Below, piece after piece: positions 1 to 60,400 of a DNA stretch of 64,000 bases. Source of the stretch: a virus; IMG/VR virus record IMGVR_UViG_3300020193_000009, positions 1 through 64,000 of that record; one strand, written 5' to 3'. How positions within the stretch are numbered: position 1 is the stretch's first letter; the number at the start of each line of letters is the position of its first letter. Under the pieces are notes generated by a model, which saw nothing but the letters and a program-made list of their open reading frames with translations, had not been told where the DNA came from and searched no databases. The translations under genes were made by a program, and so were the position numbers.

Positions 1-30
1 CAAAGGGAGACAAGGTGAAAAAGAGATAAT

Positions 31-86
31 GGGGCGCACACGCTTACCCTCCGAGCGTGTGCGCCCCACCCTTTTTTTGTCTTTTT
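31..86 (+). terminator. Intrinsic terminator of the cassette upstream of the window
   Basis: ggggcgcacacgct/agcgtgtgcgcccc stem followed by a T-rich tract. Confidence 0.85.
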
Positions 87-89
87 GCA

Positions 90-185
90 GGGCGGGCGCT
101 AGGTGCGCATAGCAGCTTGCACGCCCTTTCTCACGATGTATGCCATTACAAGGTTTAGTATGGTTTCTTGGTGTAATGATACGCT
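90..185 (+). promoter_or_regulatory. Cassette element copy 1 (hairpin + GGTTT box + -10 TACGCT)
   Basis: Matches array consensus; -10 at 180-185. Confidence 0.85.
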
Positions 186-234
186 GGTAGTGTCGTTGAG
201 ATTACAACCGAGACACTCACGACAGGAGACAATA

Positions 235-588
235 ATGAATACGCAGGTCATCATCAGGGCTATCCTTACTGCGATGAGCAGTCTGGACAGCAAGCACCCG
301 AATGTCGGCGTGTGGTTGCCAGAAGCGACCATTGCTCGCTTGGGTGAGCGAGATGAGAAGGCAGACAGGCAGATGCTCCAGCAATGGTTCAATCGCATTG
401 TCGCTGTTGCTGGCAATGTGAATGTCGGCTGGGTTCACACCGTTATGTTCGACAATGACGGGATGTGGAATGTGTCGGAGTGCTATCTGGCGTTGGCTGG
501 TCACACACCGACTGTGTTCATCGGCAAGCGTTACGGCGTTGGAACGCAAGTCATTCCAGGGCAACCGATGAGCGAATGGTTGTGGTAG
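235..588 (+). CDS. Hypothetical protein, cassette 1 (117 aa; paralogue of cassette 5)
   Basis: AGGAG RBS before ATG 235; shares VWLP.AT, QQWFNRI..VAG.VNV.WVH and ECYL with 2452-2754. Confidence 0.85.
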   Translation: MNTQVIIRAILTAMSSLDSKHPNVGVWLPEATIARLGERDEKADRQMLQQWFNRIVAVAGNVNVGWVHTVMFDNDGMWNVSECYLALAGHTPTVFIGKRYGVGTQVIPGQPMSEWLW

Positions 589-596
589 GAAGTTTC

Positions 597-643
597 GGGC
601 GAGGGGCGCAAGCCCCTCGCCCACTTTCTTTTATCTTTTTTTT
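597..643 (+). terminator. Intrinsic terminator (GCAA loop)
   Basis: gggcgaggggc-gcaa-gcccctcgccc + T tract. Confidence 0.9.
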
Positions 644-646
644 GCC

Positions 647-741
647 GGGAGGGCGATCGGTGCGCATAGCACCTTGCACGCCCGCACACACGGTGTATGG
701 GTTTCTGGGTTTAGTAAGGTTTCTTGGCATACTGATACGCT
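647..741 (+). promoter_or_regulatory. Cassette element copy 2
   Basis: Consensus match; -10 TACGCT 736-741. Confidence 0.85.
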
Positions 742-790
742 GGTTGATGTCGGGGAAACACCAATAGACACCCCGACAAGGAGACAAGTA

Positions 791-1108
791 ATGAACACGG
801 AAACGAATGGGATAACGGTCGGCAATATGGCGACCATTCTCAGCGAGGTGATACTGGTAATGCTCGGCGGCATTCGCCTAGCGTTCCCAGTCGCAAGGCA
901 ATACGACATCGACAACCTCGGCTGGCTGGATAGTGGAATGCAGAATGCTGACGAGGCAATCAACTACTTCGTTCAGGTCGCAACCCACGAGTTCCGCAAC
1001 GAGGGCGAACCCAACAACTACGAGTTCGCACTTGATGCAATCAAGGAGGAAACGACCAAGTTGGTAAAGTGGTACAGCAACCTCAAACCCAACTACCAAT
1101 CACGATAG
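791..1108 (+). CDS. Hypothetical protein, cassette 2 (105 aa)
   Basis: AAGGAG RBS before ATG 791. Confidence 0.8.
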   Translation: MNTETNGITVGNMATILSEVILVMLGGIRLAFPVARQYDIDNLGWLDSGMQNADEAINYFVQVATHEFRNEGEPNNYEFALDAIKEETTKLVKWYSNLKPNYQSR

Positions 1109-1125
1109 CCCAGACAGACGGGCAA

Positions 1126-1177
1126 GAGACGAGCGCACCGACAAGCGGTGCGCTCGTTTCTTTTTTGTCTTTTTTTT
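1126..1177 (+). terminator. Intrinsic terminator
   Basis: acgagcgcaccg/cggtgcgctcgt stem + T tract. Confidence 0.9.
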
Positions 1178-1180
1178 CGT

Positions 1181-1276
1181 GGGAGGGCATTAGGTGCGCA
1201 TAGCACCTTGCACGCCCACTCACACGGTAGATGTCGTTTCCGGGTTTAGTACGGTTTCTTGGTGTAATGATAGTGT
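1181..1276 (+). promoter_or_regulatory. Cassette element copy 3
   Basis: Consensus match; -10 TAGTGT 1271-1276. Confidence 0.85.
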
Positions 1277-1398
1277 GGTAGGTGTAAGCGGGCAGTCGTG
1301 CGCCCGATACAATCGTCTGCTGGCAGACCAGCGACTCAAGCACGGCTAGTCTGCCACCCAACAACGGCAGTCGTTCGGATAATGACTGCCAGAGAGGA

Positions 1399-1695
1399 AT
1401 GGCAATGTCAGACTACTCAGCCAAGAGTCGGCACATCACTCAGCGTGGTTCACGAGAGCAGGAGTTCATCACCTTCCTGCTTGACCGAGCCTGCCCTGCG
1501 GAGGTGGAACTGGTCACGAACGAATGGCACGAGGACGGTACGGAAGTTGTTCGCAAGACCTTCCTTATCGACCTATGCTGCCAGCGTGTGGAGGTCACTG
1601 CCGAGCGCAACCCTGACAACACTTGGTCACTCATCAAGTGGAATGAATACGCCGTTCTCACCCGATACGAGGACGGGGTGGTAACAGCAGAATGA
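1399..1695 (+). CDS. Hypothetical protein, cassette 3 (98 aa; start may be 1405)
   Basis: GAGAGG RBS; ORF ends just before the terminator. Confidence 0.75.
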   Translation: MAMSDYSAKSRHITQRGSREQEFITFLLDRACPAEVELVTNEWHEDGTEVVRKTFLIDLCCQRVEVTAERNPDNTWSLIKWNEYAVLTRYEDGVVTAE

Positions 1696-1700
1696 GATGT

Positions 1701-1749
1701 GGGAGTCGAGGCGAAAGCCTCGGCTCCCCTCTTTTTTTGTCTTTTTTTT
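1701..1749 (+). terminator. Intrinsic terminator (GAAA loop)
   Basis: gggagtcgaggc-gaaa-gcctcggctccc + T tract. Confidence 0.9.
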
Positions 1750-1752
1750 CGT

Positions 1753-1848
1753 GGGCGGGCGCTAGGTGCGCATAGCAACTTGCACGCCCACTCACACGAT
1801 AGAACGCATTACAAGGTTTAGTACGGTTTCTTGGCATAAAGGTAGCGT
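1753..1848 (+). promoter_or_regulatory. Cassette element copy 4
   Basis: Consensus match; -10 TAGCGT 1843-1848. Confidence 0.85.
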
Positions 1849-1900
1849 GGTGGTGTCGGGAGCAACACCAATAGACACTCCCGATAAGGAGCAATACGCA

Positions 1901-2233
1901 ATGACCATATTCACACTACTCGTGGTGTTGGTTGCCACGACTGCGAGCGCACTCACAATGACGCTCGCATACACAATGACCAAGCGACTAGTTGCGTCGG
2001 AAACGAAACAACTACGCAGGCAACTCCACCAAGCCCAACTGAAACTCCGATACCGAACGGAGCGCCACCAGCGGGATTTGGAGAGCGCTCTAACTATCGC
2101 ACGACACGCAATAAGGGCAAGGGATTATTTCAAGACTTTCGCCCCGTCATCCGCAATGGGTACATTTGACCAAGATGGCAAATACATCCCCAGTGCGGTG
2201 GCTGCGATGAAACGGCGTGAGAACAACCTGTAA
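1901..2233 (+). CDS. Hypothetical membrane-anchored coiled-coil protein, cassette 4 (110 aa)
   Basis: TAAGGAG RBS; hydrophobic N-terminus MTIFTLLVVLVATTASALTM followed by a heptad-like segment. Confidence 0.8.
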   Translation: MTIFTLLVVLVATTASALTMTLAYTMTKRLVASETKQLRRQLHQAQLKLRYRTERHQRDLESALTIARHAIRARDYFKTFAPSSAMGTFDQDGKYIPSAVAAMKRRENNL

Positions 2234-2248
2234 TACCGAAGCCGAGAT

Positions 2249-2302
2249 GCCCCACGCGCTTACCCTCCGAGCGCGTGGGGCGTTTCTCTTTGTCTTTTTT
2301 TT
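2249..2302 (+). terminator. Intrinsic terminator (same taccctccg loop as 31-67)
   Basis: gccccacgcgct/agcgcgtggggc + T tract. Confidence 0.9.
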
Positions 2303-2305
2303 GCC

Positions 2306-2401
2306 GGGAGGGCATTAGGTGCGCATAGCACCTTGCACGCCCGCACACACGGTGTATGCCATTACAAGGTTTAGTACGGTTTCTTGATGTAATGATAGTG
2401 T
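2306..2401 (+). promoter_or_regulatory. Cassette element copy 5
   Basis: Consensus match; -10 TAGTGT 2396-2401. Confidence 0.85.
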
Positions 2402-2451
2402 GTTGGGTGTTGAGGAGATTACAACCTAGACACTCCCAACAGGAGAAAGTA

Positions 2452-2754
2452 ATGGAAACGTTCACCCAAGCGATTACGCAGGCAATGGCAAGCCTGTCTC
2501 CTAGCCACCCAGAAACTGCGGTGTGGTTGCCAATGGCAACCTACACCCAGCGGGGCGAAGGGCTGGATGCGCAGATGTGGTACGACCACTACCAGCAGTG
2601 GTTCAACCGCATTGCGTTCGTCGCAGGGCAGGTCAATGTTCACTGGGTTCACTCGGTGCGTATTGATGAGAACGGCATCTCGCAAGTCTGCGAGTGCTAT
2701 CTCAGCCCGACAGGCTCGGTAGAGCCGATAAGGGTTATCGGCGTTCGTGGTTAG
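2452..2754 (+). CDS. Hypothetical protein, cassette 5 (100 aa; paralogue of cassette 1)
   Basis: AGGAG RBS before ATG 2452; aligns to 235-588. Confidence 0.85.
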   Translation: METFTQAITQAMASLSPSHPETAVWLPMATYTQRGEGLDAQMWYDHYQQWFNRIAFVAGQVNVHWVHSVRIDENGISQVCECYLSPTGSVEPIRVIGVRG

Positions 2755-2806
2755 AACGCCATAACTGCGCCAAGGTTATTAGGCACGGAGTGCCACTTGA
2801 CGCAGG

Positions 2807-2856
2807 AGTTGGGGCGGGTGCGAAAGCACCCGCCCCAACTTTCTTTATCTTTTTTT
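2807..2856 (+). terminator. Intrinsic terminator (GAAA loop)
   Basis: agttggggcgggtgc-gaaa-gcacccgccccaact + T tract. Confidence 0.9.
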
Positions 2857-2859
2857 CGT

Positions 2860-2955
2860 GGGCGGGCGATCAGTGCGCATAGCACCTTGCACGCCCACTC
2901 ACACGGTAGATACGATTACAAGGTTTAGTACGGTTTCTTGATGTAAAGGTAGTGT
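2860..2955 (+). promoter_or_regulatory. Cassette element copy 6
   Basis: Consensus match; -10 TAGTGT 2950-2955. Confidence 0.85.
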
Positions 2956-3006
2956 GGTGGGTATCACCAACGCCTGAACAAGAAGTAGGGCAAGGGGGTA
3001 TCTGTA

Positions 3007-3297
3007 ATGGTAAAATTCAAACGGCGTTATGTAAGTCCGAAAGTTAGGGCTCGCTTCTATCTGAATGCTCGGGAGCGCACCAAAATGCTTGAGGACAATC
3101 GGGGAAACGCATTTATGTGTCGGTTGATATTCCTAGCGTCTATCAATCGGGGTGCTCTGGAGAACTTCCTTCAGAAAGTGCGTGATGAAACTCCTTTCAC
3201 CCCCGAAGTTATTAGACCAAGCGAGCGTGCTCTGACCAAGGGGCGTTCGCCCAAGCGTCAAGGTACAAGCAAGAAGTTTCCGAGACTTGGAGACTAA
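3007..3297 (+). CDS. Basic hypothetical protein, cassette 6 (96 aa)
   Basis: AAGGGGGT RBS; fills the cassette; K/R-rich. Confidence 0.8.
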   Translation: MVKFKRRYVSPKVRARFYLNARERTKMLEDNRGNAFMCRLIFLASINRGALENFLQKVRDETPFTPEVIRPSERALTKGRSPKRQGTSKKFPRLGD

Positions 3298-3303
3298 GAA
3301 AGT

Positions 3304-3340
3304 GGGCGAGACGCGCAAGCGTCTCGCCCCTTTTTCTTGT
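3304..3340 (+). terminator. Intrinsic terminator (GCAA loop)
   Basis: gggcgagacgc-gcaa-gcgtctcgccc + T tract. Confidence 0.9.
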
Positions 3341-3348
3341 CCCGGGGC

Positions 3349-3444
3349 GGGTGGGCGATCGGTGCGCATAGCACCTTGCACGCCCGTTCACACGATAGAC
3401 ACGATTACAAGGTTTAGTACGGTTTCTTGATGTAATGATAGTGT
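3349..3444 (+). promoter_or_regulatory. Cassette element copy 7
   Basis: Consensus match; -10 TAGTGT 3439-3444. Confidence 0.85.
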
Positions 3445-3495
3445 GGGTCTTACCAACAGCAGTCGTTCAGATAACGACTACGGAAATGAGATGAA

Positions 3496-3834
3496 ATGAC
3501 CACAGACAAAATACTCCATACAGTTGAACTTCCACTCAACCCAGACAACCACTATGGAACGGCAAGCACAGCGCTTGACTTGTTTCATCGGGTGAGTATT
3601 GCCCACATAATGGGTGAAGCGTCTGGCGAACTGATTCAGGTATGGCTAGGTACACCGACTAATGCCAAACTGTTCACGCTCGTAGGTACTGCCAAGAAAG
3701 ACGGAAAGATAGTCTTTGTTGGTGAGTGTGCTGACCCCGATTTCCCAAAGGAGGTTGACGGTATTCGCGTCAATAATCTCTTTGCGTTTGAGGCAACACC
3801 GAACACTCGGATAAATGTAAAGACACAGCAATAA
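3496..3834 (+). CDS. Hypothetical protein, cassette 7 (112 aa)
   Basis: Fills the cassette between element and terminator. Confidence 0.8.
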   Translation: MTTDKILHTVELPLNPDNHYGTASTALDLFHRVSIAHIMGEASGELIQVWLGTPTNAKLFTLVGTAKKDGKIVFVGECADPDFPKEVDGIRVNNLFAFEATPNTRINVKTQQ

Positions 3835-3840
3835 GAAAGT

Positions 3841-3887
3841 GGGCGAGAGGCGCAAGCCTCTCGCCCCTTTTCTTTGTCTTTTTTTTT
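3841..3887 (+). terminator. Intrinsic terminator (GCAA loop; stem identical to 4383-4408)
   Basis: gggcgagaggc-gcaa-gcctctcgccc + T tract. Confidence 0.9.
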
Positions 3888-3890
3888 GCA

Positions 3891-3986
3891 GGGTGGGCGA
3901 TCGGTGCGCATAGCAGCTTGCACACCCTTTCACACGATACACGGTGTTTCTAGGTTTAGTACGGTTTCTTGGCATAAAGATAGTGT
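3891..3986 (+). promoter_or_regulatory. Cassette element copy 8
   Basis: Consensus match; -10 TAGTGT 3981-3986. Confidence 0.85.
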
Positions 3987-4037
3987 GCTTACCAACAACA
4001 GCAACCGTTCGGATAACGGTAGCAGAAACGAGATGAA

Positions 4038-4376
4038 ATGAAACACAACAACAACAACAACTTGTATTGGACATTCGGTAGGCTGGGGGAAATCGTTGCG
4101 ACGAATACCGCAGTCACGCTCAACACAGAACATTTCACCCAGCAGGAATGGGGGTGGATAAACGAAGCAACGGATGGTTGGCGGCAGGATGTCGCTATCG
4201 CCTGTTTCGTTCGTTCGTGGTATCGCTTCAATCGACAGATGAGCGAGAACGGACTTCCATGCAAGTGGTGCTCGTTCGTTGAGGATGAGACAACTGAACA
4301 CGGATGGGTGTGGCTGACCTGCAACGACCCAGCACAGTCAATCACGTCAGAGGGTTGCGATTGGGGAAACTGCTAA
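4038..4376 (+). CDS. Trp/Cys-rich acidic hypothetical protein, cassette 8 (112 aa)
   Basis: Fills the cassette; same leader type as cassette 7. Confidence 0.8.
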   Translation: MKHNNNNNLYWTFGRLGEIVATNTAVTLNTEHFTQQEWGWINEATDGWRQDVAIACFVRSWYRFNRQMSENGLPCKWCSFVEDETTEHGWVWLTCNDPAQSITSEGCDWGNC

Positions 4377-4382
4377 GAAATC

Positions 4383-4422
4383 GGGCGAGAGGCGCAAGCC
4401 TCTCGCCCACTTTCTTTGTCTT
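4383..4422 (+). terminator. Intrinsic terminator (GCAA loop)
   Basis: gggcgagaggc-gcaa-gcctctcgccc + T tract. Confidence 0.9.
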
Positions 4423-4427
4423 GCGGC

Positions 4428-4523
4428 GGGTGGGCATTAGGTGCGCATAGCAACTTGCACGCCCGCACACACGATAGACACGATTACAAGGTTTAGTACG
4501 GTTTCTTGGCATAAAGATAGTCT
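4428..4523 (+). promoter_or_regulatory. Cassette element copy 9
   Basis: Consensus match; -10 TAGTCT 4518-4523. Confidence 0.85.
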
Positions 4524-4576
4524 GGTGGGTATCTACAAGCAGTCGTTCGGATAACGACAGCAGAAAAGAGAATGAG

Positions 4577-4885
4577 ATGAAAGAGTACGAAGCAGCAAAG
4601 TCATTTGACCCGATGTTCATCATCACCGTTCAGGGGCTGGTGCGTTCAGCACTTGTCTCGCTCAAGCGTTCACGCAAGGCAGGTGGAGTGCCTATCGTGA
4701 CGTGGCGAGAGACCGTTGGTAATCCCAACATTGAGTTGATGAAAGCAATGCTCACCTACGCAACTCGTGTTGTGGCTGAGGAACTCAACCGTGATGTTGA
4801 GACCTACTTCATCCAAGAAGTCGTGGACAACGCACGACGCTTGGAAATCACGGCAATGGTTCAGCGAACGGAGTGGGACGGATGA
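4577..4885 (+). CDS. Hypothetical protein, cassette 9 (102 aa)
   Basis: Fills the cassette between element and terminator. Confidence 0.8.
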   Translation: MKEYEAAKSFDPMFIITVQGLVRSALVSLKRSRKAGGVPIVTWRETVGNPNIELMKAMLTYATRVVAEELNRDVETYFIQEVVDNARRLEITAMVQRTEWDG

Positions 4886-4892
4886 AAGATTC

Positions 4893-4939
4893 GGGGTGGG
4901 GGCGCAAGCCTCCACCCCACTTCTTTTTTTATCTTTTTT
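4893..4939 (+). terminator. Intrinsic terminator (GCAA loop)
   Basis: ggggtgggggc-gcaa-gcctccacccc + T tract. Confidence 0.9.
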
Positions 4940-4942
4940 GCC

Positions 4943-5038
4943 GGGTGGGCGGTAGGTGCGCATAGCACCTTGCACGCCCGTTCACACGATGAAGCCATAA
5001 TGAAGGTTTAGTACGGTTTCTAGGCATAGTGTTAGCGT
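4943..5038 (+). promoter_or_regulatory. Cassette element copy 10
   Basis: Consensus match; -10 TAGCGT 5033-5038. Confidence 0.85.
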
Positions 5039-5090
5039 GGGGAGTGCCGATGAGATAACAAACCTAGACACTCACGGCAAGGAAAGAACA

Positions 5091-5396
5091 ATGGCAAAGG
5101 TAAACCTGAAGGACATACAAGCAAGGCTCGTGAAGCGTGGGCGTGAAGCCTACGAGAACGAGAGCCTGAGCGCAGAACTGCTTGCGCTCACGCACGACAC
5201 GACTGACGCTTTCATCTTTGATGAAGCGACTTTCGCTGGCGAAGCGAAGGCAGACAACCCCGACTATGTGAACCACAAGAACTTGTGGCGCAACCGTGTC
5301 GGTTCCATTGCTGAGCGCAACGGAATCCCAAAGGATTCGCTGAGCGTTCAATGGACTGTTGATGGCGAGATGGTAGTCTCGTACAAACAGTCGTAG
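5091..5396 (+). CDS. KVNLKDIQ-KRGR family protein A, cassette 10 (101 aa; possibly DNA-binding)
   Basis: AAGGA RBS before ATG 5091; clear paralogue of 5683-5985 and 6268-6549. Confidence 0.85.
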   Translation: MAKVNLKDIQARLVKRGREAYENESLSAELLALTHDTTDAFIFDEATFAGEAKADNPDYVNHKNLWRNRVGSIAERNGIPKDSLSVQWTVDGEMVVSYKQS

Positions 5397-5411
5397 GCAT
5401 ACGCAAGGAAG

Positions 5412-5443
5412 GCGCCCGACCCGAAAGGGTCGGGCGTTTCTTT
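5412..5443 (+). terminator. Intrinsic terminator (GAAA loop)
   Basis: cgcccgaccc-gaaa-gggtcgggcg + tttcttt. Confidence 0.85.
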
Positions 5444-5444
5444 G

Positions 5445-5484
5445 GCTGGGGTTCAAGGTGCTACTCGCACCATTGAACCCCAGC
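5445..5484 (-). repeat. Inverted copy of the cassette hairpin
   Basis: Reverse complement core GTTCAA-T-GGTGC-GAGTA-GCACC-TTGAAC inside a gctggg/cccagc outer stem. Confidence 0.85.
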
Positions 5485-5535
5485 TGGCTCCGGGGTGCTC
5501 TCTAGATCTCTTTAATACATATTCTCAGCTTGTGC

Positions 5536-5631
5536 GGGCGGGCGCTGATGCGTATAGCATCTAGAACGCCCGCCCCATAGGAATAGGTGTTTCACAAGGT
5601 TTAGCACGGTTTCTAGGCATAGTGATAGCGT
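5536..5631 (+). promoter_or_regulatory. Cassette element copy 11 (covariant stem GATGC/GCATC)
   Basis: Diverged consensus; -10 TAGCGT 5626-5631. Confidence 0.8.
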
Positions 5632-5682
5632 GGAGGGTGCGGGGAGCAATACCAACCAAACAACCCGCAAGGAGAAACAACT

Positions 5683-5985
5683 ATGAAAGTAAACCTGAAA
5701 GAAATCCAATCCCGCCTCGTCAAGCGAGGGCGTGAGGCATACGAGAACGCAAATCTCGTAGCCGAACTCCAAGCGCTGGACGCTGGCGACCCAACGGATG
5801 CTTTCCTCTTCGAGGAAGCGACCTACGAGGGTGAGTGCTCGTCAACGAACGAGGACTACACGAACCACAAGAACCTGTGGCGCAACCGTGTGTCGTCGCT
5901 CGCTGGTCGCTACCTCGGGGACGAGGTGGAAATCTCCGTCCAGTGGACGGATAAGGGCGAAATGATAGTCTCGTTCCGCCAGTAA
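5683..5985 (+). CDS. KVNLKDIQ-KRGR family protein B, cassette 11 (100 aa)
   Basis: AAGGAG RBS; paralogy. Confidence 0.9.
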   Translation: MKVNLKEIQSRLVKRGREAYENANLVAELQALDAGDPTDAFLFEEATYEGECSSTNEDYTNHKNLWRNRVSSLAGRYLGDEVEISVQWTDKGEMIVSFRQ

Positions 5986-5999
5986 TACCGCAATAAGGA

Positions 6000-6031
6000 G
6001 CGCCCCGCCGAGCAATCGGCGGGGCGTTTCT
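6000..6031 (+). terminator. Intrinsic terminator (GCAA loop)
   Basis: cgccccgccga-gcaa-tcggcggggcg + tttct. Confidence 0.8.
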
Positions 6032-6034
6032 CGG

Positions 6035-6072
6035 CGGTCGTTCAAGGTGCTATTCGCACCATTGAACGACCG
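6035..6072 (-). repeat. Inverted copy of the cassette hairpin
   Basis: cggtc-GTTCAAGGTGCTATTCGCACCATTGAAC-gaccg. Confidence 0.85.
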
Positions 6073-6122
6073 GCTGTGAGAATGCCTATCTCACTTACTT
6101 TTAATATGCATTTCTATTTATG

Positions 6123-6220
6123 GCGGGGGTTCGATGGAGCGTATAGCTCCTTGAACACCCGCTCTCTAGGCAAGCGCATAAATAGGCGTTTAGTATGTTC
6201 TCAATACACAAAGATACGCT
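6123..6220 (+). promoter_or_regulatory. Cassette element copy 12 (covariant stem GGAGC/GCTCC)
   Basis: GTTCGA-T-GGAGC-GTATA-GCTCC-TTGAAC; GTTTAGTA box; -10 TACGCT 6215-6220. Confidence 0.75.
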
Positions 6221-6267
6221 GGATGTTGTGAACGGGATACCAAACACAAAGAAAGGCAGGTAGCACT

Positions 6268-6549
6268 ATGAAAGTGAACCTGAAAGACATCCAATCCCGA
6301 CTAGTCAAGCGTGGGCGTGACGCATTCCAGGACCCAATCCTGGAAGCCGACCTACTCGCACTTGACCCTGCGAACGAAGATGATGCGTTCATCTACGAAG
6401 CAGGACAAGGCAATCCCGACGACGATAACTTCGTTGCGCACAAGAATAAGGTGCGCAATCGGGTTATCTCAATGGCGAAGACACACTCGCTAGAAGTCAG
6501 CATCCAATGGACTGACTTAGGCGAGTGCGTTGTTAGCCTAGCCAAATAA
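6268..6549 (+). CDS. KVNLKDIQ-KRGR family protein C, cassette 12 (93 aa)
   Basis: Paralogy with the two preceding genes. Confidence 0.9.
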   Translation: MKVNLKDIQSRLVKRGRDAFQDPILEADLLALDPANEDDAFIYEAGQGNPDDDNFVAHKNKVRNRVISMAKTHSLEVSIQWTDLGECVVSLAK

Positions 6550-6574
6550 CCAATGGTATTCCCGTTCACACGGA

Positions 6575-6606
6575 GTGCGTGCGCCGAAAGGCGCACGCAT
6601 TTTCGT
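6575..6606 (+). terminator. Intrinsic terminator (GAAA loop)
   Basis: tgcgtgcgcc-gaaa-ggcgcacgca + ttttcgttt. Confidence 0.85.
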
Positions 6607-6644
6607 TTGGTGTTCAAGGTGCTATTCGCACCATTGAACACCAA
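6607..6644 (-). repeat. Inverted copy of the cassette hairpin marking the array end
   Basis: ttggt-GTTCAAGGTGCTATTCGCACCATTGAAC-accaa; composition turns AT-rich immediately after it. Confidence 0.85.
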
Positions 6645-7187
6645 TTTTTATGTATTTCTATTTCCTTAACTTGATTACATATTCTCAAACTAAACCTTTT
6701 CATGGGTGTTCCAAATAAAAATGTATTTTTATTTGCACACCCATTTATTTTTATTTATTTATGCCTTTACTTTAATCTATATTCCTAACTAAAACTATTT
6801 ATTTGTTTATGTGTTTCAAATTCTATTTAGTTTTGCCTATGCCGGCGCAGACAAAATTTTTTAGGGGCTACCCTTGTGTGCCAATGGCTGGGTAGTATCC
6901 TGTATCTATCCGTATACAGACAACTCGATCAATCCCGCAATTATTTGATGGGTAATAACACCGTTGTAATCAATCCGGCTTTAACTGTATATTAAAAATC
7001 GTTGATTAGTCGTTTGAACTATGCTAAAAATACTCGAGAGTTCTCTCGATTAAAGTGTCGATAGTTTCGGCTATAAAAAAATGTGGATTTGTATCGATTA
7101 ATTTCTATTTTACTTTAAATATGTCCAGAATAGGCTATAGAAGCCCTAATAAGCGTTCTCAAATTATAAGTGTTTCACAATTGCACA

Positions 7188-7265
7188 TTTTTTCTATCTT
7201 TTACCCCATTTTGCCCCACTTTTACCCACTTTTTACCACTTTTTACTATGTTTTGCCTATTTTTA
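7188..7265. repeat. Helically phased T-tract repeats (TTTTACCCAC-like, ~10-11 bp period)
   Basis: ttttaccccatt ttgccccact tttacccact ttttaccact ttttactatg ttttgcctat. Confidence 0.7.
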
Positions 7266-7337
7266 TTTATTTTTATATGCCATTTTAGGCAAATTTTTTT
7301 GGGAATATGCCTATATTAAAGCATATTCCTTTGCCTA

Positions 7338-7353
7338 TGTTCCACGTGGAACA
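7338..7353. promoter_or_regulatory. parS: parS-type centromere palindrome
   Basis: Perfect 16-bp palindrome TGTTCCACGTGGAACA matching the bacterial chromosomal parS consensus. Confidence 0.8.
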
Positions 7354-7411
7354 ATGAACTATAATCTATTTTAATATTTATAACGAAGTTTGAACTCTCG
7401 TCTCTTACTAT

Positions 7412-7440
7412 TTGACAATGTATAGGGTTGCGTATAACTT
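7412..7440 (+). promoter_or_regulatory. Putative sigma-A promoter antisense to the leftward early unit
   Basis: TTGACA-17 bp-TAACTT. Confidence 0.45.
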
Positions 7441-7519
7441 AAACTCCTGGATTGTCAAAGACTATGAGAAGCAATACGATTACACCCCATACTAAAGCTA
7501 ATACTTTATTGATCATCAT
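7439..7519 (-). CDS. 26-aa hydrophobic peptide MMINKVLALVWGVIVLLLIVFDNPGV
   Basis: GGAGG RBS; single predicted TM helix; below the ORF-track cutoff. Confidence 0.6.
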   Translation of the reverse strand: MMINKVLALVWGVIVLLLIVFDNPGV

Positions 7520-7523
7520 ATTA

Positions 7524-7604
7524 TTAATCCCTCCAATAATCAAATGCTACGACTACAAATACAGCGATTACAAATATAGAGAATACTAATTTATCCCAAT
7601 CCAT
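7524..7604 (-). CDS. 26-aa hydrophobic peptide MDWDKLVFSIFVIAVFVVVAFDYWRD
   Basis: Starts 1 nt after the upstream stop; single predicted TM helix. Confidence 0.55.
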   Translation of the reverse strand: MDWDKLVFSIFVIAVFVVVAFDYWRD

Positions 7605-20731: not shown

Positions 20732-21081
20732 TAGAGTTCATTTTTCTGAAGTTTATATTTAATCATATGCATAGTCTTATTTACCACTTTAGAAGCAACA
20801 GATTTATAATCTTCTTGTCTAAATAAACTGCGTAAAGTACCACGTTCTCTTGAAGTGAAACCACCCCATACTCCAAATTTAATATCTTCATTTAGAGCAT
20901 AAGTTAAGCATTGTTCAATAACAGGGCATTCTTTACAATAAGCTTTTGCTTTGTCTGTTTCTTTCTTTATATTTCTATTTTCTTCATCTGATTCAAAGTA
21001 AAATACATCAATAGGTACGCCTTTACAGGCTGCCCTATCGCGCCATATTTCTTTAATTGGACTAAATAATTTACGATTCAT
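20731..21081 (-). CDS. whiB: WhiB-family transcription factor
   Basis: W..RAACKG..AKAYCKECPVIEQC..GVWGG. Confidence 0.93.
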   Translation of the reverse strand: MNRKLFSPIKEIWRDRAACKGVPIDVFYFESDEENRNIKKETDKAKAYCKECPVIEQCLTYALNEDIKFGVWGGFTSRERGTLRSLFRQEDYKSVASKVVNKTMHMIKYKLQKNEL

Positions 21082-32809: not shown

Positions 32810-33395
32810 ATGAATTTGTATCAATGGCTGATTCTTTTGAAAGATCTATTCTTTCACCTGACATAATTTCAAATGCAATTTCTAATTCTTTTCTGACCTC
32901 TTCTGCAATCGCGGGATGTTTTGCAATAACATCTCTTAGTATTTTAGAAAGAATTTGATTAACATTTTCCGCTTTCTGCATTCTTGCAATGTACTCCCCA
33001 TCAGCTTGATTGCCGCCCATAAGTTTATGCAATTGAGCTTTTTTAGATGCAATCTCCCCGGCAAGCTTGATTGCCTGAATTCTTGCGGCAACCATACCAT
33101 TGTCTGTTGCAATTGCAATTGTTTCCCAAGCCTCTTTGCTTAGTTGATCAAACTCCTGCAATGCTTTAATTGTATTAAATTGAACCCTTTCAAGAAAATA
33201 AGGATCTTCATCAACAGTTTTATTTAAGATAATTTTATATTCTTCTACATATTCTTTTACTTCATTTGGTTTTAGCGACATCAATGCGCCAATCTCTCTA
33301 TTACTATAGCCCTTTACATGAAGTAAACCAACTTGTTCTACATCTTTAATTTTATCAATTAAAGATTTATTTTTAATTGGTTCGATATCTGACAT
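32787..33395 (-). CDS. Putative terminase small subunit (N-terminal HTH)
   Basis: GYSNREIGALMSL HTH; directly upstream of terL. Confidence 0.6.
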   Translation of the reverse strand: MSDIEPIKNKSLIDKIKDVEQVGLLHVKGYSNREIGALMSLKPNEVKEYVEEYKIILNKTVDEDPYFLERVQFNTIKALQEFDQLSKEAWETIAIATDNGMVAARIQAIKLAGEIASKKAQLHKLMGGNQADGEYIARMQKAENVNQILSKILRDVIAKHPAIAEEVRKELEIAFEIMSGERIDLSKESAIDTNSSEFENGN

Positions 33396-34453
33396 AATCT
33401 CTCTTTATACTCTTGACTCACTTTCTCCCAGGTAAGATTTTTATGGACCCATTTTGCGCCATGAAAAGTTTTATCTGCTACTTCATCGTAGTTATTTACA
33501 ACATATAACATTTTATCACATAAATCATCGAAATCCGGCTCTGCCCAGTCACCGCACCCTTCGTATATTCCGAACATATTCATAGTTCCCCACTTATAAT
33601 TAAGCGGCACAGACAGATGTGCAAACTCAGTACAAGCAGTAGCGTTAGTGCAAATAGTTGGAATACCTTTTGCTATACCTTGCAATGGAAGCAACCCCCA
33701 CCCTTCACCACTTGTAGGGTATAAAACACAGTCCACTTCATCATAAATTTTTGCAAGATCTGAATCAGTGGTTTGCCAATCAATTACTTTAATTCTATCG
33801 TGGTCTTTCAAATACATTCTAGAACCATCATTAAAGTAAATTCTTGCATCTGCATGCCCATTTGATTTATAAATAAGATTAAAGCGGTCATCTTTGCCAA
33901 ACAGCTTTAGAAAAGCGTTTACAGACATCTGGGAGTTCTTTCTGGTCGACGGAGAGCCTATACTTAAGAAAGTAAATCGCCCCGGTTTCCTCAATATTCT
34001 TGGCTCAGAGGGCATTGAGTAGATTACATCATTAACACCAAGTTTAAAATCATAAACAGGTATCTTAACTCCAGAGTTGATAAAGACATTTTTAGCCCAT
34101 GCAGATGTTGTCCAAAACTCATCAGCGCTATTAATTAGATCAATCCAGTTTGCTGGTATTTTATTTGTTTCCCAATATGTAAAACAAACATTGTAGCCAG
34201 GTTTTTTATTAAAAAATATTGGCAAAGCATTATAGATATATATATCAGCAGAATTTGTAGATTTTTCATATAGAAAATTTATGCCCGCATTATGCAGTTT
34301 GTTAATTTCTTCTACCCGCTCTTTGCTTTGATCAGTAATATTTTCTTCTATTAGGTCAAAATCATTTTTCAAATATGATTTTAGATATGAAGCAGAATCA
34401 CTGTACCCTTCAGACTTGTTCAATATTACTGCTGTAGTCCATTGCACTCTCAT
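33359..34453 (-). CDS. Glycosyltransferase family 4 (GT-B)
   Basis: WETNKIP, RKN, PTSGEGWGL...A.GIP. Confidence 0.88.
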   Translation of the reverse strand: MRVQWTTAVILNKSEGYSDSASYLKSYLKNDFDLIEENITDQSKERVEEINKLHNAGINFLYEKSTNSADIYIYNALPIFFNKKPGYNVCFTYWETNKIPANWIDLINSADEFWTTSAWAKNVFINSGVKIPVYDFKLGVNDVIYSMPSEPRILRKPGRFTFLSIGSPSTRKNSQMSVNAFLKLFGKDDRFNLIYKSNGHADARIYFNDGSRMYLKDHDRIKVIDWQTTDSDLAKIYDEVDCVLYPTSGEGWGLLPLQGIAKGIPTICTNATACTEFAHLSVPLNYKWGTMNMFGIYEGCGDWAEPDFDDLCDKMLYVVNNYDEVADKTFHGAKWVHKNLTWEKVSQEYKERLCQISNQLKINL

Positions 34454-43773: not shown

Positions 43774-44415
43774 TCACCAACTATCTTTTAATTCACCGGT
43801 AGTCAAGAACACTTGCTGCTTTTCATATGGCAGTCTCATGTAAACATTGTCTAACTGATGCATTGGTAGATCTGTTATAGCCTTAAGCTCGGGCGACACA
43901 TCCAGAGGAATAAGCGAATAATTTGTATCCGCCGCCGTTGAGCCAGTACGTGAATACTTATAATATCTATCAGTAACCGTACTAAACTCTTTTGCATACT
44001 CAATAAGTGTCAAACCAACATGTCGTTGGTTAAATGTTGTATCCAATACTCTTGGCTCCCAAACACCCGGCTCTGTTTCAACCGCAATATTGATAAGTAG
44101 GTGTGGCTTTGGTCTCCACGCTTTATCAACTACTGCCTGCTCACTTGCCCAACATCTATAGTTAAATTCTTCCATAGATGCAGTGGATGCAACTCTCCAT
44201 TTCCAATTGACTGGTGAAGTTACAACCGGTACAGTAATGCCTGTGCCAATAGTTTCAGAATAATTTTTAGAGTCTTCTGTTAATTCTTGTCTAAATCTAA
44301 TTCTAAATGACTGCCCTGCTTGAACAGTAAAGAATCGTTTCGGACCGCTCTTTCCACCTGCCGGTGCTACTGCCTTTTCAAGGTCTTTTAGTGTTTTAAC
44401 TGATGTAAATGCCAT
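43774..44415 (-). CDS. Putative single-stranded DNA-binding protein (gp32-like)
   Basis: Position between primase and dnaE; IRF..INIAV..SRTG....TNYSLIP. Confidence 0.6.
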   Translation of the reverse strand: MAFTSVKTLKDLEKAVAPAGGKSGPKRFFTVQAGQSFRIRFRQELTEDSKNYSETIGTGITVPVVTSPVNWKWRVASTASMEEFNYRCWASEQAVVDKAWRPKPHLLINIAVETEPGVWEPRVLDTTFNQRHVGLTLIEYAKEFSTVTDRYYKYSRTGSTAADTNYSLIPLDVSPELKAITDLPMHQLDNVYMRLPYEKQQVFLTTGELKDSW

Positions 44416-47024: not shown

Positions 47025-47253
47025 CTCCTTTACTCACCTCTTTCCAAGTCTCCTGCATTACATCAAACTCTGACAAGCCGCCATTTACGCCGTAAAAAGA
47101 ATCCGTTTGCCACATATTAAGAATACATTCTTTTCTTACAGTGCATGACTTGCAAACATTTTTTGCATACTGCACTTCTTCATATTTATAAGAAAACCAA
47201 CGTTTACTATTTTTATCTATAAGGCAAAGCGCACGCTTTCTCCAAGAACTCAT
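46963..47253 (-). CDS. whiB: WhiB-family transcription factor
   Basis: WRKRALC..AKNVCKSCTVRKEC..GVNGG. Confidence 0.88.
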   Translation of the reverse strand: MSSWRKRALCLIDKNSKRWFSYKYEEVQYAKNVCKSCTVRKECILNMWQTDSFYGVNGGLSEFDVMQETWKEVSKGDDTNWKRTDRVLQKLLQKVS

Positions 47254-57031: not shown

Positions 57032-57427
57032 TTATCTCTCCGTTAAAGTTAAAGAAACATCGTAATAAGAGCACTGGGAGGTATAATCTCGTCTTATTAG
57101 ATCTTCGCTATATGAATCTATATAGCAATCTAATGTTTGATACTGACCTGGCGATAATTCAATAATAATTGTCGCAGCAGCTGAGCCATTAGCTAACGAA
57201 TAAAGAAAATCTCTGCCTACCCGATTGTCCACAGTTTTTGATTGTAAACTTGGTAAATATGACCATTTTAAAGAAAATTGTTTTTTATTCCTTGAATAAT
57301 ATCTACGTTTATGACCCGATGCTAAATCAATATCATCAGCAGCAATCTGTTCACTAATAGATATTTTTCTGTTATGTTCTGTTATTTCTGTTGAGTTAAT
57401 TGATAAAAGTTTATGTATTGACATCAC
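57032..57427 (-). CDS. Putative distal tail (Dit-like) protein
   Basis: Directly follows the tape measure gene; 131 aa. Confidence 0.65.
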   Translation of the reverse strand: MMSIHKLLSINSTEITEHNRKISISEQIAADDIDLASGHKRRYYSRNKKQFSLKWSYLPSLQSKTVDNRVGRDFLYSLANGSAAATIIIELSPGQYQTLDCYIDSYSEDLIRRDYTSQCSYYDVSLTLTER

Positions 57428-60400
57428 ACGCCTCTATTTAAACCTGTATATGTTTTAATTACCCTATTTTCTAAACCAGCTGTTTTTTGATTTCTTGGCA
57501 AAACTTTTGTATTATATTCTTTCATCATTGAATTAAACCACTCTGGTTCACCAACAAATGTATCAACATAGATATTTACATTCTGCGTTGATGAACTCGT
57601 TCCACCAGCAGACTGCATTGCTGGCGCTGGAACCCTCATTGATGGAATTTGCGGGACAGAGAACTTTGCTTTATTAAGCTGAGTCAGGGCAGGTATGCCA
57701 ATCTTCCTTACAGCCTCTGCATTTAGAACAAATTCACCACCATGCAGAGTTGCAGGAATTGGCATAGATGGAGCGCCGGGTACATAACCACCTTCTTTTC
57801 TGTTCACGCTTGGCAATGGGATTGGTCCCAATTGATTCTTTGTACGATAAAATCTATCATAGTAATCCTTCGCTCTCCTTATCAAAATTCTTTCAATCCT
57901 TGTATTTATCGCAAGATTTTCTACAGGGACAGTGCCTATTTGCATAAAAGGATCTCTTCCAACTATTCTTGCAAAGGCATTGAAACTTGCCTTACCTTCA
58001 CCAAAGTAGTATAGTAAATTCTCAAAACCGTATAGGTCATCCGTCATGCCGTATGGTTGTCCTTTAGTAATATTTTTCAGACTAGAATATGAGCCAAGAA
58101 GGAAGTCATCAAAATGCCTTGCCATTCTTATATAATATTCCTGAAACTGCGCAAATTCACCAATGATTTTCCAAAGAGTTTGTGTTTGCACAACACTACT
58201 CAACCCGTGACCACCAATATCTGGATCAAATTTTTGCCTTTCTAAGATCGTTCGCCAACTATTCTCTAAAGCCTCGTCAAAGCTCTGACCAGGAATAAAA
58301 TCACGCATATCAAGACCTTGCAATCTTGCAAAAATCTCATTTAGTGCATACCGCTGTTCATTAGTATAGTTCTGAATTGGCAGATTCTTGTAATCAAGAA
58401 TTTCATACTTACCAGCAGGGAACCTGAGCCCCTCACCAGGTCTTGGAGTAAAATATGTGTCTACACCCATTATATTTTCAATTGCCCCGGGGTTAGCATC
58501 AATTAGATCTTTTAATTTAATGGCTATTAACCGACCTGTTTCCCGGGAAGCACTTCCTCTATTCATTATTGGTCGCACAAGGTGATTTAATGCAAAATGA
58601 ATTGTGTCTCTAATAATTTCATTATTATCACTATTCATAACCCTATAATGGTCACTTGTTGGACGTAAAATAGCATCACCAATTTCATTTATTTCAAATG
58701 GATATGATGTTTCATGAACAGCCATCAACTTATCAAGAGTCAACTCTCTCATCCCACGATCCAATTGAATACTCTTCATTATTTGTTCTTCGATAACTAC
58801 AGGCTTGTTTCTCGCAGCGACTTCTATGGCTGTTAGCCTCTTTCCTTCTAGCACTAAACGGGCATATTCAAGCTGAGCCTGAAGATTGTTTTTTACCTTG
58901 GCGGCATAAAGGAGCGCTGATACATATGTATCATTAACATCACCGCCAAAAGATTTATACCCAACGTGTGCTTCGAGCCATCCTCTTACCGTACTAACTG
59001 CATTTGGACCAATTTTTGATGTCCCAGTAATATCAAGGGGGTTTAAAGGAATATTTCGAACCTTTCTTAAATCCGGAAGAGCTTTTAATAAATCATCACT
59101 TAATCCAAATCCAACTGTTTCGCCTAAAATATTATGAATATACGCGCCTACTGATTCAGTAACTTCCGGGGACCCTTCGAGATGAGAAAATTCAAGTAAA
59201 CTTTCAGGCAAAATAGAGCGACCAGTCACTTTTTTAGTTTGTATGTTAAATTGTTTTTGAACTAAAGCAGGTAGATTTTTACCAGTAGTTCTTGTACCAG
59301 ATGGCAAAGCAAGTTGTCGAGGTATAAGATTTTTAACATCTGTTAATTTTGAAGATTCTTTTTGAAGGCTGGATACTATACCTTTTGCATCATTATTTAT
59401 TTTAATAGACCTATTTACTCTAAGCAAAGCTCTCTTTAACAAATCTTTTGTGAAAAACCCACCTCTTCTTCTAACTTGTTTTAGTATATTTACAAGTTCC
59501 ATATCGTCAATGTCAAGAGGAATTTCAGCCAATATTTTCTGGGTCCGTGTGCGCATACTAGTTGAGCCAGGGATATTGATATCTTCGAGGAGCCTGCCTC
59601 CTTTTGTTATATAGAAAGAACCTTTTGGACGGAGGATTGGAAGACTGGTTTCATCAATAGGAGAAAGATCGTAACCCAGTTTTCTAGCAATTTTTGCAGC
59701 ACGACCTTCTCCTTGAAATACATCGCCAGCAAACCCCCTGTCGTCTGCGTAGTACCTGGCAGAATTTACTATTTCTTCGACTTTACCTCTAACCCATGAA
59801 TAAGTATAATCTCCAAGATTATCTCCAGGACCAAACGATCTACCAGATAAAGATTCCGAAATAATATTATCTTTAATACCTTCTGGACCCACATGGATCC
59901 CAATTCTTCTTGAAGGTAACAGATTTAATGGATTTAGAGACCTTATTGCTTCGATTGCCTTAGTGATAGGTCCTGGTTGCAAGATTGCATCACGTGTTCT
60001 ATATGGCATTGATTCTTGTCTCAGGGCGGGTGGCATTGATTCATTAGCTATAAATGCTGCTTTATTTGCAGCTAATCTTGCATTTCTAATTGCAATATTA
60101 TCTGCTCTAATAAGATTATTAATTACGCCTTTAACACCAGCCTCTAAAGCATTGCCTTGTGGTGGATTTACAGAACCCTTAAGAGTGTTAACAACTTCTG
60201 GAATATAATTTTTTGCAACCTCAATTTTATCAACAACTGAACCTACCTTTTCTGCAATCACTCCAGCACGGATTTTTGCTGATTGACCAACAGTTAATCT
60301 TCCAGCTTTGGCAGCAGAGACCGCCTTTGCAGCTCTTGCAACATCATCAAACCTGCTAACCGCTGTCACTGGAGTACCGGATGCCGCTGTGCCGAGTATG

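Follow-up and report, generated by a model that had tools for sequence, protein, structure and literature searches.

The window analysed here comprises the first 64 kb (64,000 nt) of a linear 80,668-bp IMG/VR virus contig (G000), which is rated ~77% complete. Its left end (positions 1–6644) carries an array of 12 tandem plus-strand units, or cassettes, with an element-to-element spacing of 489–593 nt. Each unit consists of a 97-nt element, a leader with a hairpin, an AAGGAG-type Shine-Dalgarno (SD) sequence, a single open reading frame (ORF) of 93–117 aa and a terminator, in that order. The element is composed of a bulged hairpin, a linker (CACACGRTA...), an invariant GGTTTAGTAYGGTTTCT block and the hexamer TAnnnT 11 nt beyond the block; the 12th copy is degenerate. 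Leaders were 47–53 nt long in 11 of the 12 units, the exception being the structured 122-nt leader of cassette 3, and in most units the leader hairpin starts 1–7 nt past TAnnnT. Every unit has one terminator, made up of a G+C-rich stem, a GNRA loop and a long T-run, and terminator-like sites were in ~3-fold excess (26 compared with 8.1 ± 2.8 in shuffled sequence). An earlier sequence-only reading of this DNA had described at least 12 self-contained units, each with a conserved element, a leader hairpin, a ribosome-binding site, a 93–117 aa ORF and a terminator, and direct reading of the sequence bore this out, as each unit has its own promoter-like element and terminator. The ~96 bp given there for the conserved element agrees with the 97 nt of the element itself but not with the full conserved scaffold, which reaches ~170 nt when the terminator and T-run are counted with the hairpin, the boxes and the −10 hexamer.

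The array had also been described as running off the left edge of the window, and this proved to be so. The last 196 nt of a 14.7-kb contig (L001) match window positions 1–196 at 100% identity, including unique ORF-tail and terminator sequence. L001 adds three cassettes leftward as well as the left boundary, where the array starts after an AT-rich leader region, so that the array contains at least 15 cassettes. Together G000 (80.7 kb) and L001 cover ~95 kb of a genome that is ~90% recovered at best. The features of the window are listed in Table 1. A conserved non-coding leader precedes the first cassette in three lineages (L001, 12700–12990; L002, 11150–11440; L199, 6780–7080) and contains a long hairpin, GAGAGCGCATCGGGC...CTCGGTGCGCTTCTC.

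Table 1. Features of the window (window coordinates unless another contig is named; families are clusters of cassette proteins)
Feature	Coordinates	Strand	Element	ORF	Terminator	Details
3' end and terminator of preceding cassette	1–72	+			30–68	MDIT-type mini-ORF, L001; 100% overlap with L001:14520–14715
Cassette 1	89–622	+	89–185	235–588, 117 aa, family 10	597–622	Hairpin 89–127; boxes 152–168; TACGCT 180–185
Cassette 2	645–1162	+	645–741	791–1108, 105 aa, family 7	1124–1162	
Cassette 3	1180–1728	+	1180–1276	1399–1695, 98 aa, family 16	1701–1728	
Cassette 4	1752–2286	+	1752–1848	1901–2233, 110 aa, family 2	2244–2286	
Cassette 5	2305–2842	+	2305–2401	2452–2754, 100 aa, family 10	2805–2842	
Cassette 6	2859–3329	+	2859–2955	3007–3297, 96 aa, family 8	3304–3329	pI 11.3
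Cassette 7	3348–3866	+	3348–3444	3496–3834, 112 aa, family 4	3841–3866	
Cassette 8	3890–4408	+	3890–3986	4038–4376, 112 aa, family 12	4383–4408	
Cassette 9	4427–4918	+	4427–4523	4577–4885, 102 aa, family 3	4893–4918	
Cassette 10	4942–5484	+	4942–5038	5091–5396, 101 aa, family 1	~5414–5434	Inverted hairpin copy 5445–5484
Cassette 11	5535–6072	+	5535–5631	5683–5985, 100 aa, family 1	~6001–6026	Inverted hairpin 6035–6072
Cassette 12	6124–6644	+	6124–6220 (degenerate/hybrid)	6268–6549, 93 aa, family 1	6572–6603	Inverted hairpin 6607–6644, right end of array
AT-rich non-coding spacer	6645–7600	.				From array to convergent backbone genes; repeat-dense; ~950 bp
WhiB-like gene	20833–21045	−				77 bits, above Pfam cut-off
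WhiB-like gene	47068–47244	−				43 bits, above Pfam cut-off
Tape measure ORF	57424–64000, on to G000 76740			6,438 aa		PhageMin_Tail domain near N-terminus only

Related arrays were found on ~18 lake metagenome contigs. The left array border was crossed by contigs L122, L126, L130 and L136 and the right border by L117, L138 and L142, and an 83.6-kb contig of a more distant relative (L199) contained an entire 9-cassette array between the same two backbone flanks. The window was also compared with contigs of four independent runs. A contig of run X1 covered positions 4961–7596 with zero mismatches, and contigs of X10 and X13 likewise bridged the right junction. Read depth was 104–143 on both sides of the array/backbone junction, and the unique parts of the array (116–143) differed from the backbone (104) by a ratio of ~1.2 rather than 2, which argues against the array being a collapsed terminal repeat. 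An assembly error that misjoined a G+C-rich segment to an AT-rich phage would explain the sharp composition contrast and the fact that the contig end falls within repeats. However, the three bridging contigs and the even depth exclude a chimeric assembly, which the sequence-only reading had named as one way in which it could fail. With independent contigs crossing both borders and a complete array within L199, we regard the probability of such an error as negligible.

Protein clustering sorted the 12 ORFs of the window into nine groups, as had been proposed, with cassettes 1 and 5 and cassettes 10, 11 and 12 as paralogues. The cassette ORFs are real genes under purifying selection (ratios of nonsynonymous to synonymous substitution mostly 0.1–0.5 among orthologue and paralogue pairs). 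The protein set is mixed and includes two membrane-anchored proteins, a 33-aa membrane peptide, one very basic, several acidic and one Trp/Cys-rich protein. The product of cassette 4, a paralogue of the first L001 cassette, has an N-terminal membrane helix, and the product of cassette 8 has 9 Trp and 6 Cys residues; its family 12 is absent from L140, L142 and L145. Searches of Pfam and PHROGs with 10 cassette proteins gave no match for any of them, and no homologues of T5 A1, A2 or dmp were among them. Family 1, the triplicated last cassette, had only unnamed metagenomic relatives. Its predicted model is a confident one (pLDDT 85) and had a single uncharacterised phage neighbour, no significant match in the PDB and no usable match in the ESM Atlas. 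An anti-defence or host-takeover role for the cassette ORFs is a guess. Of the platform for immediate-early host-takeover or anti-defence genes suggested in the sequence-only reading, the early role gained support from the indirect signatures described below, while the function of the ORFs, with no family or fold match, stays a guess. The ~25 small protein families nonetheless form a defined pool and an obvious place to seek such functions.

To the right of the array the genes lie on the minus strand at ~33% G+C. This backbone encodes a 6,438-aa tape measure protein, a DnaE-type polymerase, DnaB, a primase and a terminase. DnaE was closest (37% identity) to ~130-kb Streptomyces phages of the family Stanwilliamsviridae, and the GenBank relatives of the tape measure protein were found solely in Streptomyces phages of that family. 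The phage also has in common with Stanwilliamsviridae the gene order helicase–primase–SSB–DnaE–UvsX–Cas4–RuvC–terminase, and a blastn search against GenBank phages returned no match. The two WhiB-like genes, this synteny and the affinities of DnaE and the tape measure protein identify the phage as an actinophage of siphovirus type. From the ~37% identity it would be a distant relative of Stanwilliamsviridae rather than a member of a named genus, and a freshwater actinobacterium is its likely host. The phage carries tRNA-Arg(TCT) and tRNA-Leu(TAA). A further set of genes, located at L001 4143–12194 and window 33359–34453, encodes a DUF1599 nucleotide-modification domain, an S-adenosylmethionine (AdoMet) decarboxylase, an FkbM methyltransferase, two GT4 glycosyltransferase paralogues and an SNase-type nuclease, and suggests DNA hypermodification.

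The array differs from the backbone in composition, palindrome content and codon usage. Its G+C content is 52% compared with ~33% in the backbone, with sharp borders, and G+C at third codon positions is 0.46–0.72 in cassettes and 0.22–0.37 in the backbone. Thirteen of the 16 four-base palindromes occur in the array at less than half of their Markov expectation, compared with none of the 240 other tetramers; for the ORFs alone the median log2 observed/expected value was −3.6. The array of every relative showed the same depletion. Six-base palindromes were similarly scarce in the twelve ORFs (9 against ~59 expected) and not in the backbone (1228 against 1142 expected). AGA accounts for 2% of Arg codons in cassettes and 57% in the backbone, and UUA for 1% and 33% of Leu codons, respectively; the corresponding values for the L199 array were 0% for AGA and 2% for UUA. 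The adjoining block of plus-strand genes upstream in L001 is backbone-like in composition, palindromes and codons. One four-base palindrome, GGCC, is purged genome-wide: it is absent from the entire 80.7-kb contig, with ~84 copies expected in the backbone, and is the sole palindrome of which this is true.

These island properties are kept in lineages whose backbones are just 72–79% identical. As the three signatures of the array were retained across such lineages, we conclude that they are maintained by selection. It is probable, judging from these signatures, that the array genes are transcribed and translated before phage tRNAs and restriction protection exist. Exposure of the leading phage DNA to restriction before protection has been described for Autographiviridae (PMC12455610). 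The 20-point jump in G+C with its sharp borders, together with the ORFan nature of the proteins, could instead mark a foreign G+C-rich island, i.e. moron-like cargo whose composition is a relic of the donor with no special link to early infection. We consider this highly improbable. The same place and composition are kept in the 72–79% identical lineages, paralogues arise within the array, and avoidance of palindromes and of phage-tRNA codons is a selective signature rather than a relic. The cultured relative Paradiddles (a Streptomyces phage of Stanwilliamsviridae, NC_042010) has the same kind of shift, with 56.6% G+C in its small-gene region and 48.0% in its backbone. Moreover, the motif was found in no other context: searches for the core motif in 596 Gb of bacterial genomes and for a degenerate pattern in a set of viral contigs gave single chance-level matches, with no host or prophage copy.

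The invariant block spans −40 to −24, the place expected for a −35 element or for an activator site standing in for one, and the information profile downstream of the block reads T8 A8 g n g T8 at a fixed distance. We interpret TAnnnT as a −10 hexamer because its conserved positions match those that are important in this hexamer. Retention of the hexamer and its spacing in L199, where the boxes have diverged, and the TAGACT of the similarly designed Paradiddles units also speak for this −10. Actinobacterial sigma-A promoters typically pair TAnnnT with a weak −35. The element would then be a target of the host's sigma-A holoenzyme, perhaps aided by a further protein of host or phage origin, a prediction that we rate at slightly better than an even chance. 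Other assignments were rejected. A sigma-54 promoter (TGGCAT..TAGC) was discarded because its GG and GC positions are unconserved and are lacking in L199, TTGCAC as a −35 and GATAGT as a −10 were ruled out by spacing and by the information profile, and a T7-like promoter was ruled out by the conservation pattern. A near-copy of the block, AGTTTAGTACGGTTACT, lies at 43972–43988 on the minus strand with two mismatches, within the SSB gene and upstream of tRNA-Ala. It was rejected as an array-type promoter, having no TAnnnT at the array spacing.

Comparison of the two lineages bears on the identity of the reader. L199 keeps the hexamer and all spacings, and both boxes are changed in every one of its copies (AGTTG...ACATTCT as opposed to GGTTT...GGTTTCT in the window). 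The 17-nt block, invariant within one lineage and altered in every copy of the other, would fit recognition of the block, the hairpin or both by a phage-specific transcription machine rather than by the host housekeeping holoenzyme alone. Such a reader, delivered with the virion or made early, might be a WhiB-like protein bound to region 4 of sigma-A, a sigma factor or activator that escaped recognition, or a polymerase domain concealed within the 6,438-aa tape measure protein. The lack of a canonical −35, the number of canonical sigma-70 promoters (7, not enriched over the 8.6 in shuffles), the restriction of the motif to the array (no element core was found elsewhere in the 80.7-kb contig and L001 by weight matrix) and the two WhiB-like genes all point the same way. 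A precedent exists in Thermus phage P23-45, in which a tape-measure-fused RNA polymerase reads the pre-early promoters (PMC10770324). P23-45 resembles the present phage in its giant tape measure protein, its private conserved motifs before small genes and its unusual conserved terminators.

Despite these parallels we consider a phage-specific reader unlikely, though worth keeping in view. Searches detected no sigma factor, T7-type polymerase or two-barrel signature; the T7-type family search was uninformative, however, as the control genomes gave no match either. In contrast to P23-45, the tape measure protein of the array phage had no polymerase domain or catalytic motif detectable in a sequence-level search: its single DxDxD falls within charged coiled-coil sequence, and searches of Pfam and of PDB sequences gave no polymerase match. 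The WhiB-like genes have a backbone-type composition, which would place their expression after that of the array if the codon logic holds. Finally, the conserved TAnnnT fits sigma-A, and the last element of the window is a hybrid in which the first box is of the window type and the second half (TTCTCAAT) of the L199 type. Because of this hybrid, the common core is reduced to GTTnAGTAnnnnTTCT, and co-evolution of the boxes with a private factor is possible but not required. The element is a candidate early promoter for freshwater actinophages, which are abundant and mostly uncultured.

The cassettes themselves turn over among relatives. Arrays were split at the block and the proteins clustered into families, giving order strings in which a slash marks a cassette boundary. 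The order was 2/9/5+6/10/7/16/2/10/8/4/12/3/1/1/1 in G000 plus L001, 2/5+6/9/7/16/2/10/8/4 in L131, 2/9/7 in L126, 10/8/4/3/1 in L140, 2/22/8/4/3/1 in L145, 14/3/1/1 in L133, 17/14/18/1 in L127 and new/6/5/basic/14/18/1/1/1 in L199. Identical orders were found again in independent samples. In L002 an extra element divides the ORF pair of a single L001 cassette between two cassettes, and the cassette that follows is unlike that of the window. Joints at which an order appeared to go back or to skip a single cassette were mostly mosaic or near-identical scaffold and were not counted as deletions or circles. Relatives thus differ by gain, loss, splitting and reordering of cassettes, which agrees with the reshuffling at the element proposed in the sequence-only reading. 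The static early operon that it had named as the contrary outcome fails, since content and order vary between the same backbone flanks.

Family 3 (cassette 9) illustrates how such exchange may occur. Its ORF has four different upstream neighbours among the relatives, homology there begins at the upstream terminator, and the sub-parts of the element (hairpin type, linker and −10 flank) assort independently around it. This pattern would fit repeated homologous exchange or gene conversion within the ~170-nt scaffold, not single cuts at a fixed site. No tyrosine recombinase (PF00589) was matched in G000 or L001, although all control genomes matched, and neither a serine recombinase (PF00239) nor an HUH enzyme (PF01797) was matched in the same ~95 kb, which extends to both contigs the earlier observation that the window shows no integrase or HUH enzyme. 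The phage does have genes for a UvsX-like recombinase, a Cas4/RecE-like exonuclease, a RuvC-like resolvase and SSB. As no site-specific recombinase was found and the phage has its own homologous-recombination genes, we favour homologous exchange within the scaffold. Since the scaffold repeats at every boundary, homologous shuffling is possible and a site-specific recombinase is unnecessary. The UvsX-like recombinase, the exonuclease and the resolvase would delete, duplicate and reorder cassettes and exchange them between co-infecting relatives.

In each unit the element hairpin is located ~70 nt upstream of the −10, past the T-run that ends the preceding terminator. Among 59 distinct copies, 8 of the 12 predicted pairs had compensatory changes. 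Pairing was found in 96% of cells, compared with 84% in shuffles and 24–45% in slid registers, and the 67 double changes (15.6 ± 4.2 in shuffles) were reached by none of 500 shuffles. The 52 G.U cells, set against zero A.C cells, show that it is the sense strand that folds. In the window as well as in L199, each of the last three cassettes is followed by the complete hairpin in inverted orientation. The arms are GGGYG..GGTGC and GCACC..CRCCC, with no RYYYAAC or GTTRRRY core sites of the attC type, and a search of Rfam gave nothing near gathering scores. The first 10 nt of the hairpin, whose core is GGTGCGCATA, resemble the XerC arm of E. coli dif, and we treat this as a lead only; no XerD-arm-like sequence follows these 10 nt, so the hairpin does not amount to a 28-bp dif-type site with a XerC arm, a 6-bp spacer and a XerD arm. 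The hairpin might act as a second barrier to read-through RNA or as a site for its processing, as a binding site for a protein, or as a recombination site.

The last of these roles would imply a different mode of turnover, in which the hairpin folds as a single strand into a recombination site of the kind seen in the attC of integrons or in IS200/IS605-type targets, and cassettes move site-specifically. A bulged, covarying and strand-biased structure that is present at every boundary, and in both orientations around the last three cassettes, has properties expected of such a site. However, no tyrosine or serine recombinase or HUH enzyme is present in the ~95 kb, the hairpin has neither an attC-type core nor a XerD arm, homology breakpoints are spread across the scaffold rather than fixed at the hairpin, and the element is fused at a constant distance to a promoter-like motif. 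We therefore regard site-specific movement as very unlikely, and the same applies to the enzyme that it would call for, whether encoded in the missing part of the genome or supplied by the host, such as XerCD. A broader form of this idea, which we judge improbable, is that the hairpin and the invariant block together constitute a dedicated recognition module apart from an ordinary promoter, serving either as the exchange site of an unknown enzyme or as the promoter of an injected polymerase or factor within the 6,438-aa tape measure protein. If true, the array would serve as an entry segment that mimics the host, is proof against restriction and has machinery of its own for expression or exchange, and in the exchange-site form it would be an integron-like system without an integron integrase that swaps cassettes between co-infecting phages.

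Taken together, the reading that we favour, and consider fairly probable, is that 15 or more one-gene units, each transcribed independently, make up the array, which is the probable first-expressed host-takeover region of a freshwater actinophage. Each unit would have a predicted promoter with a sigma-A-type TAnnnT −10, in which the invariant GTTnAGTAnnnnTTCT block replaces a canonical −35. Transcription would begin at a protective 5' hairpin or a few bases ahead of it, and the transcript would continue with a strong SD sequence and the small ORF and end at an intrinsic terminator. Host-type G+C-rich codons, without reliance on AGA or UUA, would allow translation at the very start of infection, and the near-clearance of short palindromes would leave little for restriction enzymes to cut before protection is in place.

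Several points weigh against this interpretation. Promoter function, terminators, start sites and timing are all predicted from sequence. The invariant block matches no known −35 element, and no reader for it was found, there being no sigma factor, RNA polymerase or DNA-binding regulator near the array. The element hairpin folds on the sense strand and yet lies outside the modelled transcript, so that the model leaves it unexplained. Some contig orders across the repeats could be assembly errors, despite their recurrence in independent samples, and a recombinase could lie in the missing part of the genome. The ~1.2-fold depth argues against a terminal repeat like that of cultured relatives. 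Finally, phage DNA modification, if it occurs, may leave palindrome avoidance in the array alone without an obvious reason.

The closest parallel in design is provided by the PeSL (promoter-early stem-loop) cassettes of T4-type phages, in which terminator and early-promoter motifs flank small ORFans (Arbiol et al. 2010, PMC2839356; Comeau et al. 2014, PMC4122927). Both systems place composite terminator–promoter motifs around ORFans, although the promoter of the array is a predicted one and not of the sigma-70 consensus. In both, close relatives differ by insertions, deletions and replacements bounded by the motifs, there is no dedicated recombinase, and phage UvsX-type recombination is invoked. 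The differences are that PeSLs are scattered through the hyperplastic regions of T4-like myoviruses, whereas the array unites at least 15 units in a single uninterrupted block of a siphovirus-type actinophage genome. The array element is longer, lacks a canonical −35 and has an additional covarying hairpin. A G+C island, palindrome avoidance and phage-tRNA codon avoidance are not described for PeSLs.

Within the cultured family, the first 10 kb of Paradiddles contain ~21 small genes on the strand opposite the backbone genes. Their units resemble those of the array in design: each combines TTGAC.. N17-18 TAGACT and a conserved GGCCCGGACA box with a terminator hairpin, a hairpin in the leader and an SD sequence. 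Unlike the array units, they have a recognisable TTGAC-type −35, repeated GGACA boxes instead of the hairpin and no palindrome avoidance, and there is no sequence similarity between the two sets. The Paradiddles small-gene region presumably lies within a long terminal repeat, and the depth of the array argues against such a repeat here. We found no description of this small-gene unit design of Stanwilliamsviridae in the literature searched.

Small non-essential genes that are expressed first, many with their own promoters and terminators, are a feature of T5 (in the first-step-transfer DNA), T7 and SPO1 (in the host-takeover module). Their leading DNA, moreover, faces restriction before it is protected. 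The array is likewise a block of small genes and would be expressed early, and its compositional contrast and purge of four-base palindromes are much stronger than in these phages; no homology between its genes and any of theirs was found. Integrons share with the array tandem single-gene cassettes, an imperfect, structure-conserved hairpin at each boundary and content that varies between relatives. As a mechanism, however, the integron analogy drawn in the sequence-only reading does not hold. The array has no IntI, attI or attC core sites, its exchange points are spread over the scaffold, and each cassette has a promoter-like element and a terminator of its own, whereas integron cassettes are mostly promoterless and depend on a common Pc. 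Lambdoid morons also combine a gene with its own promoter and terminator and have a deviant composition, but they are single insertions expressed from prophages, whereas the array is homogeneous, has early-type signatures and belongs to a lytic-looking phage. Intergenic repeats that act as promoters have been reported in halovirus HF2 (PMC8707807).

The principle of PeSL-like shuffling was already known, and the value of the array lies in its unusually sharp signatures and in its tie to a cultured phage family. Particular to it are the 20-point G+C island, a near-complete loss of short palindromes that is confined to the array, codon usage that shuns the phage tRNAs, a promoter-like element that has an invariant block but no −35, and a covarying hairpin in two orientations. 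It presents, as seen from sequence alone, probable first-expressed genes built as exchangeable units, and would bring together in one place three independent adaptations to the first minutes of infection, namely host-like codons that call for no phage tRNA, near-total removal of palindromes and a predicted promoter and terminator for each gene.

The spacer to the right of the array contains many short direct and inverted repeats and is 76% conserved in L199. Motifs from the junction of the spacer recur behind cassettes 10 and 11. It may serve as an origin, in packaging or as a point at which injection pauses.

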